Assembly: GCF_000143415.4 (NCBI RefSeq)
Contig: NW_003314310.1
Coordinates: forward strand, 223,904-287,903
Direction: 5' to 3'
Origin: Selaginella moellendorffii
Lineage: Eukaryota > Plantae > Lycopodiophyta
DNA: 64,000 nt
Part shown: piece after piece, positions 42,523-55,601 of the stretch
Layout of the letters: every line of letters begins with the position of its first letter
Position numbering within the stretch: position 1 is the first letter of the stretch
Notes under the pieces: model-generated
Databases searched by the model: none
Seen by the model: the letters and a program-made list of their open reading frames with translations, nothing else
Told to the model about the DNA's origin: nothing
Made by a program: the position numbers and the translations under genes

Positions 42523-42939
42523 ATTGTCATTATCCCACTTGTAAAATAAGGTTTCCAAACCTTTATATAGTATATAAATATAACAAAATTCAACTGCATT
42601 GAGGCACATACCATTTATTTTAAACAAGGAAATGTCTACTCAATCACTTCTCCTCCCCCTGCCACTGCTTCACCTCTCTCTTCTCCTTGTCATCGTCGTC
42701 CAATTTCTTTCCATCCTTTTAATATTGGCTTAGTTGCTCCGAGTCTAGGTGGAGCCCAAGTCCCCATTCAATCTTTACTTTCCCCTTATTAATAAAACAA
42801 CTTCGTAGACTTCCAATAACATGCTGTAACACTTCTAGTATAATGCAAATCCTCTCAAAGAATTGTCTTTTAATATTAATACAATGGCATGGAACCCCAT
42901 GCCATAATAAGTTACATTTTTAAATAAATACATGCCATC

Positions 42940-43802
42940 TCAGACTGTTATTTTTTGCCTCCAACGCCTATACAATAATCTTGGAATTTCATCACTCTCC
43001 ACACTATCAGGATTTAAACCCAATAATAATGCCATCTCTTCTCTAATACGTCCACGCTCATGTTCAGTGGTCGAAGAACCCATCCGGTTGAGCAGATTAT
43101 GGAGATGCGGATAGTGCTTGGCTAGACAATATACATGCCATAAATGATGACTGGTGTCTGTCTGATCAAATGGCTTCTGATATACCGTTCCATCTGCCAT
43201 TTGGTTGATTTCTGCAGCCACCTCCTGGACTGGCCGGTTCTCTATCACCATCGCTTCAAGCCGTTTTGCAAGGTCCCCCAGAACATACGGTTTCTTCTCC
43301 CTAGTTTCCATACTGCAAGAGATGGGGTGCACTGCATATGTGTGCGTGTTCGCTGCAGTTTTAATCGGCGAGTCATCGATGATGAGGATTTCACTTGACC
43401 TAGCAGTTCGGTTCATCACTACAGCCTCTGGCTTGACGAAGATGGGCTTGCTACCCCTCACATGGACCATAGTCAAGCAATCCTCCTGCGTTAGGAGAAA
43501 GTCAAATGGTAATATTACTCGCGTCTGATCGTGCATCATCTGTAGCAACGTTAATGCATTGTGGCGCATCATGGATGTCCAAACTCCCAATTGCAAATTG
43601 AACCCGGCCCTCTGTTTTAAGTGTCGCATGGTCATTATTAGATCCCGCAGTTTCTCCCGTGTGATTAATGTGAATCTGTCTCTTTTGACCAACTTGCGAC
43701 CGCAGGCTTTGGAGGGTGCAGTGACATTCGAGGACGAGCCACGCTCATGGGAGAAAAGGACACCGTTTAGATCAAAAACGATACAGTACTTTTGCCGTGA
43801 CT
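42940..43802 (-). CDS. FCP1/SCP (NIF) HAD phosphatase-like domain exon
   Basis: IVFDLNGVL (motif I, DxN variant), GVWTSMM, IFVKP, ILIIDDSPIK. Confidence 0.85.
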
Positions 43803-46800
43803 CTGAAATGAAATGCGTCAACATAAAAAATGGTACAAGTCAATTTTACCATCTACAATATTAGCGAATGGTGCTCCCGATGGTCGTTCAGAGGGTTTTG
43901 GTCGAGGAAACGTGAAGGGCGGAAATACTCTCCTCTGCAATGTGGGGTCAATCGCATCCGATGGCGTGTGGGCACATGCCATTTCAGCTGTAGACTCTGG
44001 TACAACTGGCTCAATAGTGGTATGGGGTGGTTCCGATGGCGTGTGATCACACGCCATTTCAGCTGGTGCCTCCGTTGGCAAAGTGGACATGACCGAACAG
44101 GCAGCAGGGGCGGTGTAGGGAGGTTCCAACGGCGCGTAGTCAGACGATTGGGCACACGTTGAGTCCGTTGGAAATGAGGATACGACCGGCTTGGCGGTTG
44201 GGGCGGCCTCATGCGGGTCCAATGGCGCCTGGTCACCGTCAGTTGGATACGTGGACAAGATTGACTCAGTGGTATGGGCAGCATCAAGTGGAGCGTGGTC
44301 AGCTTGCTTAGCATTGATATGGATAGTAGCCTCCACCAGCTCTAATGACTCTTGCAAGCAAGTAGAGTCCACTGGCGGATCCATATGCATGTCCAAATAT
44401 CTCCCTTCGATTGAGATGGTATCCTCCCTACTGGCTACTAAAAACAAACTCATTAGCACATTGAATCGACTATACTGTATTTACCATCAACTGCTATTGG
44501 GCGCACTGCTGATTCTGAAGGATTGGACATACGTTTCAACCCTTGCTTGGCACTATCCTTCCTCGACACTAAAGGCTAGAGTTTGTATCTTAATTCAACT
44601 GAATAATCTCTACTTACCATTTCTTCTGCGACCTACATGGACAATGTTAGAAATGGTAAAAGGTTAGGAATGGATGTACTATTATTTACCTGATGGTTTG
44701 TCTTGTATGACCTTCCTCCGCTGCTCTTTGGCCACCTCAGGCTGGCCATCGTTGTCATCATCGTCATCGTCGTTATTGTGATCGTCACCATTGTGAGGAC
44801 CATCCAAGTCCTCTTCGTCCTCCTCTTCTTCGTCTCCTCTTCTTTGTCCTCCTCTTCATCCTTCTGCTCTTCCTGCTCATTATCTTTCTCTGGCTCCTCA
44901 TCCCCCTCCTGCATTTCTTCCATAGGCTGCTCAGGCTGGATGGCTTGTTTTTCCAGGACCATCTTGGGAAAATCATCTGGCCGAGTCTCCATCTCAAAAT
45001 ACAAGACATCCATAGCCTGTTTCAGTGCTTGACCTAGGACCGTATCCTCACCCGACTGTCTTAACATGGTTTCTGCACTTTCTTGCACCCTTCGAAGACG
45101 ACGAGATGAGAAAAACGTGGCCCTGACTTGAAAAGCATCCCTCATCCATTGTACCTCTCCATTGAGATTGGGGAAGGGGAGTCTGCCATAGGAATCTGAG
45201 TCAGGAGGTGGTGACTGGCTCCTTTCACTCAGCCCTTGATCTGCAATGAATGGCATGAGCACACACGCCATAACCGCGAGGCATTACCTATCATCTTTTC
45301 GTTGCCCTTCTTCCTTTTCGAATCAAACGCCTCTGATCCCGACGACTGTCCAACGTGCTTTCGCTTTTTATGACCACTGTTAGTTTGAGCTTGACTAGTG
45401 CTTGCCTGTTTTGCCTTTGAAGAAGTGTCTCTTGCAAGGAATGGCATAAGACCACATGCCATTGCAAATATAATTTGTACCTCCTTTTTTCCTATTGCTT
45501 GTCTGTTTGTCGTTCTTCGACGCGCCACCAGTGCGCTTTTCAGTCCTCGTGTCTGAATATTCACAACGATCTATAATCAAAATGGCGTGAGGCCTCACGT
45601 GACCTTACCTTGTGTAGGTTGTGAGCTCGGCCTAACATCAGTAGCTGTTAACGCCGTTTCAGCATCTGGGGGTGGCCACGCTCCTGCATACAGAGCTTGT
45701 GAGATAACATTTAAACTTAAAGTGCGTACTCACCAGGTTCGCAGAGAAGATACTGTTTTTCTTTGGCAACTGTAATTATATGCTCCATTGAAGTCACCTC
45801 TTCAATGGAGTTTGTCACCGCAACACACGGGACACCCTTGAGTAGTGCAGCTCGAAAGAATAGTCCGCCGCAGTTGTACTCGACAATGCATTTGCCCTTG
45901 GTGTCACCCGCTATTGCGTTGAAGACCCAGCTGAGCATTTCCCATGCTGCACCTGGAGCTTTCTTTGGATTCGAAAGCTCCATAGCCGTCTTCAGTTCCT
46001 CAGGCACGGGTAAATTGACCTCCCTCAGATCAATTCGATCGGCCTTGTCGAACGAAGCTGGGAAGTCACTCCAGTCCCACTCTGCTGCAGGACCAATAAC
46101 AAGGGCGAGTGTGAAGATGCGGACATTCGTCGGTATCTTCTTCTTAGCCATTATCCCATGGATCTCCCGCATCTCCTTGCCTTTCAACCGAGCCTTCACC
46201 TCGTTCAAGGCCTTCCAGAACTTGTGATAGGATTCGGAGTCGTAGATCATATAGTGGACTGAAGATTTCACCTCCGCAAGTCCCACCATTAAGTCAATGA
46301 TGGAGCTGACTTCGTCTGCATGAGTGATCTCTTCGTTTGTGAAGTCCATCACACAAAAGATGTTCTTGACCTGCTCATCTCCGCGGGAAACGATGCTCCT
46401 CCACCTTTGATCCTCATCCGAATTCACGTATACCCGGTAAGGTTCTCGATAGGCCTCTACTGCAGGGTCGAGCTGTTTCTGAAGCCGGCGGTCGACATCC
46501 CTCTTAATGAAATTTGGATACTGATCCAACTTCTCAGCTTTACTTTTCGTGGCATCCCGCAGCAGATCGATGAACTTGGGGGCCCCCTTCACATACTCGT
46601 CGATGTCTTCATTTGACAAGTTCAGCTCTTCCATCATCTCTTGCGTGGTGTCGATGCTCACCCTCTCCACGGCCACTTGCTCGAAGCTCCAATCCTTCAA
46701 TAGCGCACGAGCTCTCAGAGTCGTGCACAAGTCCTCGTATGTCACAATATGGCCGGGAGTCATTTTGGTCTTGTTGAAGACTACCTCACCACGTAGAAGA

Positions 46801-54300: not shown

Positions 54301-54506
54301 CAGCATGAGCATATCGGTGGATAATGTTGTGCATGGTTGGATGCGGAAGCAGAGTGCCACCATCACCTTGCCAGGCCATGCAAGAGATGCAGCAAGAGCA
54401 TTCATAACCCGGGTTCAAGGTGAGATTCATTAATATTCCTTTACTAAGTTTCTAATGTATTTTATTTCAAGGTGAACAATCCGAATCTGAATCAGAGGAG
54501 GCGTGA
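51365..54506 (+). pseudogene. DDE transposase of element B (Sola1/DUF7869-like motifs), one premature TAG
   Basis: ORFs 51365-51673 and 51680-54433 are in the same frame. Motifs: SKCDEC, HDKMDQKKT, LQTDNAGSENKN, FLMVGHTHKDVDAMF. A 52-bp intron at 54420-54471 leads to TGA at 54504-54506. Confidence 0.85.
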
Positions 54507-55601
54507 TGGCATGTGGCCTGAGATGATGTGACATATGCATTTACCAATCACACGTGCATAAATCTAATAATATGGCGTGTGGCCCATATTAATGGCACAT
54601 AAACCCATATTGTGGGCTTACGTGCTTTATGTACCATCATTCCCTTGCAGCGTGTGTGTTGGTTTCCTTTTATAACACAACGAACTCCATATTTTAGGGT
54701 GAAGAGCGTTTTCATGGCAAGCACAAAATCTATAAGTGAGGCAGAAAAGGAGACGGAGAAGGAGATAGGTGAAGATGTAGAATATATAAGTCTTCCAAAC
54801 TCCCCGTACTATACTCCAGGTGATCATTTTTCTGAACAAACGGCAACATTAATAACTATCGAGAACGCCCCAGTAACGTCAGAGACAACAATCCAAAGCA
54901 AAACAACTGACCCGGAGAAGGATGATAGTACCGCTGAGAGTACCAAAAAGGAGGTGTCCACTAGCGCTTAGGCTTATAATGGCGTGTGCCCTCATGCCAT
55001 TTACTTGATCACCAAATACCTTTTTCCCTTTGCACTAGTATATCTTAATACCGGTCTGAGAAATAGAATGGCCCTCAGGCCTTTTACTAAATCACCTTTG
55101 AAAGAAATGCAAGCCTCTATGTCGTAAAAAAAAGGTACTAGAGAAACTCCTTAATAATATGAATGTTATTTAGTTTCATGAAAATACACTAAGGGTCAAA
55201 TGAGTTAAATGACTTCTCCAGACTAGCAATGCCTCTTGCTACACCTTCACAATTAGATTCGTTAGAAAAAGATAACATTGAATAATATCTAAATGTTCTC
55301 ACCATTAAGTGATATGTCTGGCTAATAGGAATGACGTTCATCTTGGAAAGCTCACCACACGCTCAATGAACAAACAAATAGTGTGTGCGCGCATGCCATC
55401 GCTCTTCTTTAGCTTCAGATTCGGCTTATTCACCTTGACAATGAGATTTATTATACAACCAGATGGACTCAGTCTGGACATAAAGTCACCGCGCTAGTCA
55501 CCATGCCCCAGATATGTCTAGCCCCTGGACAAAAAACATATAATTTCACGTCATTTTCAAATACTTGAAAATTTGTACCTAGTCCCATTTTACTGAATAA
55601 A

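Follow-up and report, generated by a model that had tools for sequence, protein, structure and literature searches.

Introduction

The two described systems closest to the locus reported here pair a transposon-borne accessory gene with DNA motifs of the same element. For VANC21 and VANC6 of the Arabidopsis VANDAL transposons (Mutator-like), binding and demethylation have been demonstrated, and the family-specific motifs, which lie in introns, intergenic sequence and terminal non-coding parts and are multiplied in tandem, measure 8–9 bp and are nowhere in that paper termed palindromic (PMC5735166). In the red alga Bostrychia moritziana, a Plavaka element (EnSpm/CACTA) carries the accessory gene PAG3, which has a distant ParB-like N-terminal domain, and the inverted repeats of the element were proposed as self-binding sites; there, the repeats form tandem arrays adjacent to PAG3, the partner domain is a 2-oxoglutarate (2OG)-oxygenase, the transposase is of the CACTA type and a methylase gene, PAG2, is also present (bioRxiv 10.1101/2025.02.11.637652). 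Here we describe a 24-bp palindrome dispersed over a 13,127-bp cut-and-paste DNA transposon of Selaginella moellendorffii, whose accessory gene is predicted to encode a ParB-like domain. The element lies in a stretch of 64,000 nucleotides (assembly GCF_000143415.4, contig NW_003314310.1, positions 223,904 to 287,903 of the forward strand), called the window throughout; all coordinates are counted from its first letter.

The locus resembles PAG3 in that a ParB-like accessory gene is paired with inverted repeats inside a transposon. It differs in that the dyads are spread over the whole element, tiny introns included, the partners of the ParB-like domain are a methylase-like region (a lead only) and an NIF-like domain, the transposase belongs to DUF7869 and the target-site duplication (TSD) is 4 bp long. 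With VANDAL it shares a separate accessory gene and a family-specific motif enriched in non-coding parts, and the dyads of its relatives are family-specific as well. However, the motif is here a 24-bp palindrome whose binding is predicted rather than demonstrated, no VANC homology was seen among the Pfam matches of the accessory protein, and the element, with its DUF7869 transposase and 4-bp TSD, is not Mutator-like. The predicted N-terminal fold of the accessory protein also recalls bacterial ParB/parS and Noc/NBS, whose sites are dispersed and palindromic; unlike these, the Selaginella gene is eukaryotic, has introns, lies inside a transposon and has no GxxRxxA motif. In a review of eukaryotic adenine methylases, fusions of ParB with helix-turn-helix (HTH) domains are mentioned in chlorophytes and chytrids, apparently from a different family (PMC4738411).

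As a transposon, the element is closest to the Sola superfamily, for which terminal inverted repeats (TIRs) of 11–1124 bp, a 4-bp TSD, a DDD-type transposase and occurrence in moss are described (PMC10741241), and which has been reported in ferns (PMC6786969). The Selaginella element agrees with that description in its TIRs of about 27 bp (93%), 4-bp TCTA TSD, size and conserved aspartates, and departs from it by having both an accessory gene and internal palindromes, neither of which is mentioned in the relevant part of the source (PMC10741241). In the literature searched, which did not extend to Repbase reports or the supplements of the Bostrychia preprint, no palindrome arrays were described in DUF7869 or Sola elements, and no paper mentioning DUF7869 was found. 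The link from DUF7869 to Sola is presumed from a likeness of motifs, the match to Sola being one of description only. The concept as such is already in print for red algae, and VANDAL offers a demonstration of it that involves an unrelated protein; what is new is the transposase group, the placement over the whole element and in micro-introns, a core common to distantly related families and the youth of the present family, which renders tests of binding straightforward.

Results

A 24-bp dyad restricted, within the window, to one transposon

When the window was searched with AATGGCRTG-N6-CAYGCCATT, the pattern proposed in an earlier note on this DNA, and up to three mismatches were allowed, 21 matches, spread from 42883 to 55400, were found where chance would give 0.10; none of 100 dinucleotide shuffles reached 21. 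The dispersed palindrome announced in that note was thus recovered. A symmetrised weight matrix returned 22 strong sites scoring 22.5–38.7 bits, of which the one at 45581 was additional to the pattern search, as well as two weak sites (42592 and 54505), the top score in 200 shuffles of the element being 16.6 bits. Eroded copies were recognized at about 50477, 51069, 54571 and 55067. All 22 strong sites lie between the TIRs, and no score above 2.4 bits was reached in the remaining 49 kb, which agrees with the restriction to the element that had been claimed within the window. The element itself extends past the outermost copies, its ends being at 42499 and 55625.

The unit is a single dyad, AATGGCRTG-WGGCCW-CAYGCCATT, with a conserved centre, GWGGCCWC. 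The sequence of the 6-bp spacer had been regarded as free; this view had to be abandoned, since G11 and C14 are retained in 42 of the 44 half-sites and positions 10 and 15 are mostly A or T. The flanks, on the other hand, are as variable as had been stated, the information being at most 0.2 bits immediately beyond the edges of the 24-mer. Inside the half-sites, conservation follows a 3-base rhythm in which positions 1, 4, 7 and 10 are loose (0.3–1.0 bits) and positions 2–3, 5–6, 8–9 and 11 tight (1.6–2.0 bits); this rhythm is not codon wobble, because changes at the loose positions are not synonymous.

The arms do not covary: among 20 distinct copies, 180 positions were paired, versus 177.5 ± 4.2 when the right halves were shuffled (p 0.31). 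At a distance of 2 nt, G11 and C14 stand too near each other for hairpin pairing, and positions 10 and 15 are Watson-Crick paired in only 7 of the 20 distinct copies. At positions 6–7, CA was counted 23 times and TG twice. This asymmetry speaks against neutral CpG decay, which would give both equally, and against a hairpin, which would tolerate T-G. Furthermore, no excess of flanking duplications was found at the copies. An independent micro-transposon resembling a miniature inverted-repeat transposable element was rejected, as no consistent 2–4 bp duplication surrounded the copies above the level of random positions. The lack of covariation, the conserved G11/C14, the CA/TG asymmetry and the missing target duplication favour a double-stranded, base-specific site; sharp flanks, non-covarying arms and copies without target duplication are also what the site of a dimeric protein would be expected to show, as had been suggested.

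Placement of the copies

Predicted coding DNA, which accounts for 60% of the transposon, holds four of the 22 strong copies, the other 18 lying outside it (binomial P 8e-5); within the body of the accessory gene, four of six sites are intronic, introns occupying 543 of 5336 bp (P 0.001). Both P values are generous, because the copies are non-independent (local duplications) and knowledge of the motif guided the search for introns. By position, introns of 47–56 nt contain four copies, the predicted 5' intron of each gene three, the intergenic region five, the end regions three and coding sequence four, the last being restricted to a repetitive linker and a length-variable transposase loop (Table 1). 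For the two loop copies, intron candidates of 55 and 58 nt were considered and rejected, both shifting the frame. The recurring peptides of the open reading frame (ORF) track, which had been attributed to the motif, are mostly read-through of introns and non-coding frames; only four copies lie in predicted coding sequence.

Density is highest in the centre, with 11 sites in 3.1 kb (3.6/kb), against 0.65/kb in the transposase gene and 1.7/kb at the right end. The central peak around the divergent promoters was correctly noted, but the absence of the motif from the termini was overstated, the right 1.2 kb holding two strong and three eroded copies. Of the latter, those at 54505 and 55067 are fuller in other family copies.

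Table 1. Features of the transposon and its palindrome copies in the window
Feature	Position	Strand	Basis
Cut-and-paste DNA transposon, 13,127 bp, DUF7869, Sola-like, young multi-copy family, this copy decayed	42499..55625		TIRs, TSD, contigs of other copies
Left 4-bp TSD, TCTA	42495..42498		junction reading
Left TIR, about 27 bp	42499..42525	+	blastn, junctions
Palindrome copy downstream of accessory gene	42883..42906		pattern and matrix
Predicted multi-exon accessory gene, eight predicted introns	42940..48275	-	spliced model
NIF/FCP1-like phosphatase domain	43342..43788	-	Pfam NIF, E 4.1e-6
Two copies (43960, 44035) in repetitive coding linker	43960..44058		
Predicted intron, 47 nt, with copy 45249	45241..45287	-	retention adds stops
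Predicted intron, 52 nt, with copy 45440, weak acceptor	45429..45480	-	retention adds stops
Predicted intron, 56 nt, with copy 45581	45553..45608	-	spliced model
Lead only: region possibly derived from an N6/N4 DNA methylase, degenerate	45735..46460	-	Atlas feature match
Predicted in-frame intron, 54 nt, with copy 47053	47043..47096	-	gap in homolog P0026
Predicted ParB/sulfiredoxin-fold domain, xxQH replacing GxxRxxA	47112..47690	-	structure model, pLDDT (predicted local distance difference test) 70.6
Predicted 5' intron of accessory gene, 239 nt, with copies 48330, 48390, 48467	48276..48514	-	splice-site inspection
Five intergenic copies (49232, 49331, 49490, 49569, 50405), local-duplication spread	49232..50428		
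Predicted 5' intron of transposase gene, 310 nt, with copies 51092, 51190, 51260	51054..51363	+	
DUF7869 transposase gene, premature TAG 51671-51673 in this copy	51365..54433	+	Pfam DUF7869, E 2.3e-41
Two copies (53106, 53163), 57-bp tandem duplication, length-variable transposase loop	53106..53186		
Right end region, strong copies 54978 and 55377; eroded 54505, 54571, 55067	54978..55400 (strong pair)		
Right TIR	55599..55625	-	blastn, junctions
Right 4-bp TSD, TCTA	55626..55629		junction reading

The accessory gene and its predicted ParB-like domain

Divergently from the transposase gene, scattered ORFs could be joined into one predicted gene, whose product would comprise a ParB-like domain, a helical part, a possible degenerate methylase region, a low-complexity linker and an NIF-like domain. 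Removal of introns of 54, 50, 56, 52 and 47 nt gave 1055 codons with a sole stop, which is private to this copy, and keeping any of the last four (50, 56, 52 and 47 nt) adds 5–14 stops. Three further predicted introns connect the model to the NIF domain. In a variant contig (loose end 45394), a canonical acceptor stands beside the motif in the intron of copy 45440. One run presumed to be RNA contained unspliced pieces and was uninformative on these introns.

Eight distant homologs of the accessory protein were found with HMMER, five of them with an xGQH motif, and none in a word-indexed sequence collection; a PDB sequence search gave no meaningful match. Three structure searches all ranked the ParB fold first for the modelled N-terminal domain. 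The top Foldseek match was Noc bound to its site (7ol9, E 2.2e-4), and structure comparison gave VIA PadC with Z 9.8 (root-mean-square deviation 3.0, 99 aligned), followed by KorB (9.0) and a pNOB8-like ParB (8.4), unrelated rows reaching at most 2.5. Helices follow the fold in the model at low confidence. No ParA-like gene was seen, and viral contigs contained neither a relative of the ParB-like domain nor an exact match to the motif.

The methylase-like region was pointed to by PF01555 clusters of the Atlas, matched at 0.87 (144 of 256 features); no Pfam or PDB methylase match was obtained for it. The catalytic motif of N6/N4 methylases is of the DPPY/SPPY type and, judging from MDFT at the candidate motif position, the region is probably inactive if it is homologous at all. 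As to the NIF-like domain, DLNGV stands at the position of DxDxT, the motif of active NIF/FCP1 phosphatases.

Palindrome arrays in related elements

Related DUF7869 loci were taken from metagenome contigs, where the best 80 of 501 confirmed loci collapsed to 57 distinct groups. These were screened blindly for palindromes, a family being defined as at least four copies per group, in comparison with 285 shuffles. A palindrome family was present in 14 of the 57 groups (12 of the 39 that measure at least 5 kb) and in none of the shuffles; applied to the window, the same screen counted 17 in the element described here and 2 and 1 in the remaining sequence. Palindrome families thus recur among transposons of this group. 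Refined matrices found 7–39 copies per palindrome-bearing locus. Inverted repeats were identified in L013, L076 and L032, and in L013 and L076 all palindromes (39 of 39 and 8 of 8) lie between them.

The exact motif of the window does not occur in the 80 related loci, for which its matrix gives one 15-bit match. Nine groups (L022, L052, L055, L056, L060, L064, L068, L075 and L076 with L013) have dyads centred on GTGGCCAC or GAGGCCAC, which is the window core GWGGCCWC, although the transposases are only 25–37% identical. The dyads of L001, L026, L047, L039 and L046 are of other sequence.

Cargo genes could be detected in the relatives only with profiles, tblastn of the cargo proteins against the 80 loci giving no match. 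A ParB-like remnant with GGQH was found in L060 (next domain E 8e-7) and another in L055 (E 1e-6 after one iteration), the first-pass detection being weak (E 0.056 and 0.024); in both loci the palindrome array lies 5' of the remnant. L013 has a divergent NIF gene. The remaining palindrome-bearing loci, most of them decayed or cut short, yielded no detectable cargo in profile searches.

Further arrangements were observed in single loci. At least two NIF-like segments in L013 (3484-5039, minus strand) are divergent from the transposase and lie beside a dense dyad array with 24-bp and 50-bp spacing (5867-7085). In L047 (1-567), eight near-perfect 24-bp palindromes spaced by ~77 bp stand directly upstream of the DUF7869 transposase. 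Two dyad families, one AT-rich and one GC-rich, appear interleaved with 46-bp periods in L039 (5256-5720) and L031 (2004-2715).

The transposon, its family and its surroundings

Self-comparison with blastn aligned 42498-42525 with 55599-55626 as an inverted repeat of 28 bp (93%). Other family copies were seen through contigs from four public runs, representing at most three samples. These contigs start at 42499 or stop near 55623 and continue into unrelated flanks. Several others join across the insertion site, and in one of them the flanks are separated by 4 letters. A long host gene on the minus strand is split by the insertion (39764-42494 and 55630-55807), and the site-spanning contigs show related genes without the insertion; this gene, labelled Crinkler-like in the earlier note, had no Pfam match.

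Twenty-five homologs of the transposase were found. D373, D580 and D582 are invariant in 25 transposase sequences, and a further conserved D lies in QxDN; a PDB sequence search gave no meaningful match. In the copy described here, each of the two genes has a premature TAG and the accessory gene also a frameshift, near 44800-44850. The accessory TAG is at 47400-47402, where 47402 is G in other copies, and the transposase TAG stands where the 96% identical homolog P0001 has Q.

In the intronic stretch 51000-51400 (401 bp), one difference only reaches 2% among copies, the main subfamily being very uniform. Loose ends in the same stretch hint, anecdotally, at a sister subfamily in which the motif is kept, the flanks are changed and one extra copy is present. 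Over 42200-55900, A>G and T>C make up most of the differences from other copies, in run X1 at 116 of 178 places; this copy has thus mostly lost C and G, which is the pattern expected of a methylated, silenced copy. Between the two genes, three head-to-tail AAACCCT telomere-type units were noted (50067-50087). An internal inverted repeat of 62 bp (77%; 54453-54513 and 55392-55453), each arm of which ends in a motif half-site, encloses a short acidic ORF (54612-54971). Elsewhere in the window (5583-13800, 28638-29996 and 35821-37048) are ORFs which, from their motifs and by eye, we take to be decayed retrotransposon genes (reverse transcriptase, integrase, chromodomain-like) and Helitron-like fragments. 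The retroelements, the plant-type telomere units and the short GT-AG introns would suit the genome of a land plant without seeds.

Discussion

The reading that we prefer, with a probability of about 0.48, is that the palindrome is a family-specific tag of the 13-kb transposon and likely the binding site of its ParB-like accessory protein, with an anti-silencing or promoter role. Its parts differ in strength. A protein of some kind probably binds the dyad. Which of the two does so, accessory protein or transposase, is an even question, and our analysis leaves an anti-silencing or transcriptional outcome about as plausible as end assembly. The accessory protein is favoured as the reader because of its predicted fold, the central and intronic placement of the sites and the recurrence of ParB-like cargo beside the arrays. 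In such a mechanism, the many dyads of the element and of its copies would each be a docking point for a protein dimer, and docking would be densest ahead of the divergent gene pair. It would label the element as 'self' and protect the use of its promoters from silencing by the host, in the way known of VANC and VANDAL. New palindrome copies would arise by local duplication and persist where they cost nothing, in introns, gaps and loose coding loops.

Several observations weigh against this reading. The ParB fold is shared by enzymes (sulfiredoxin, Z 7.6; a serine kinase, Z 8.1), and no profile match to a helix-turn-helix was obtained in the accessory protein. GxxRxxA, the CTP (cytidine triphosphate)-binding motif of ParB, is missing from it, the window having SRQHS, the homologs SGQHS or DGQHT and L060 GGQHT. 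Among the related groups, 43 of 57, many of them short or decayed, have no family of four or more palindromes, and of the 14 loci with palindromes, all of which have a transposase by selection, no more than 2 gave a ParB-like remnant, weakly detected in either case. The placement statistics are generous for the reasons given above. With respect to a double-stranded site, G/T pairs at positions 7/18 exceed A/C pairs 8 to 1 on the plus strand, and a nominal excess of arm pairing was found in 4 of 15 relative loci (p 0.011–0.048), whose seeds had been chosen as palindromes. Finally, L013 and L076 have copies 73–100 bp from their inverted repeats, as expected of binding on the transposase side.

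Because of these subterminal copies, the transposase remains a serious rival, if an unlikely one: it, or its N-terminal repeated domain, would read the dyads and gather the ends, as TnpA, which binds the subterminal repeats of CACTA elements, but along the whole element. The presence of a transposase in every palindrome-bearing locus (by selection), a weak N-terminal match to Transposase_23 (E 0.005, below the cut-off) and the eight sites kept by the short derivative L076 would fit such a role. In the window, however, 384 and 225 bp separate the ends from the strong copies closest to them, density peaks in the middle, and such a role hardly accounts for copies that lie in 50-nt introns at 3–6 kb from any end; by eye, the TIR bears no obvious likeness to the motif. 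We consider it less probable still that the palindrome is a selfish or neutral micro-repeat, spread by slippage, tandem duplication and conversion and cleared from exons by purifying selection on the proteins alone. Local duplications are indeed evident (49232/49490/50405; tandem units of 57 and 75 bp; 47051 identical to 51090 over 25 bp), copies have been gained and lost among family members, and exon selection alone accounts for the non-coding placement; but the copies show no excess of flanking duplications, their conservation is position-specific, strand-symmetric and sharp-edged, the CA/TG asymmetry at positions 6–7 is left over, and distant families independently keep dyads of about 24 bp, nine of them with the same core.

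A site of a host transcription factor exploited by the element would account for the density peak before both genes, and the core common to several families could reflect one conserved host factor. This appears improbable, as the remaining 49 kb of the window contain no copy, 5 of the 14 families have unrelated dyads and 24 bp is long for a plant transcription factor site. Most improbable of all is a hairpin of RNA or single-stranded DNA, aiding for example the splicing of very short introns: four introns of 47–56 nt are about half filled by the motif, which in three of them ends 8–11 nt before the acceptor, and the G/T excess would suit it, whereas the arms do not covary, positions 10 and 15 mostly fail to pair, three equally short introns have no palindrome and many copies are intergenic.

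A broader proposal, which we hold to be doubtful, is that a module for self-recognition, derived from ParB, has been taken up by transposons of several eukaryotic superfamilies. In it, a clamp-like accessory protein would load on private palindromes, spread over the entire element and shield it from silencing, protein and palindrome co-evolving in each family. Should the dyads be read by the ParB-like protein, a fold of bacterial chromosome partition would have been turned into another system of self-recognition, the second and unrelated to the first. The related families have at least six different dyads which, with one common core and variable arms, would offer a ready specificity code in which tests of cognate against non-cognate pairs are simple, and such dyads could yield programmable-looking DNA-binding modules. 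For annotators, the arrays provide a structural signature of a poorly described transposon group. This young, high-copy DUF7869 family, in which other copies are free of the stops of the present one, would allow the idea of a ParB-derived self-recognition module to be tested directly.

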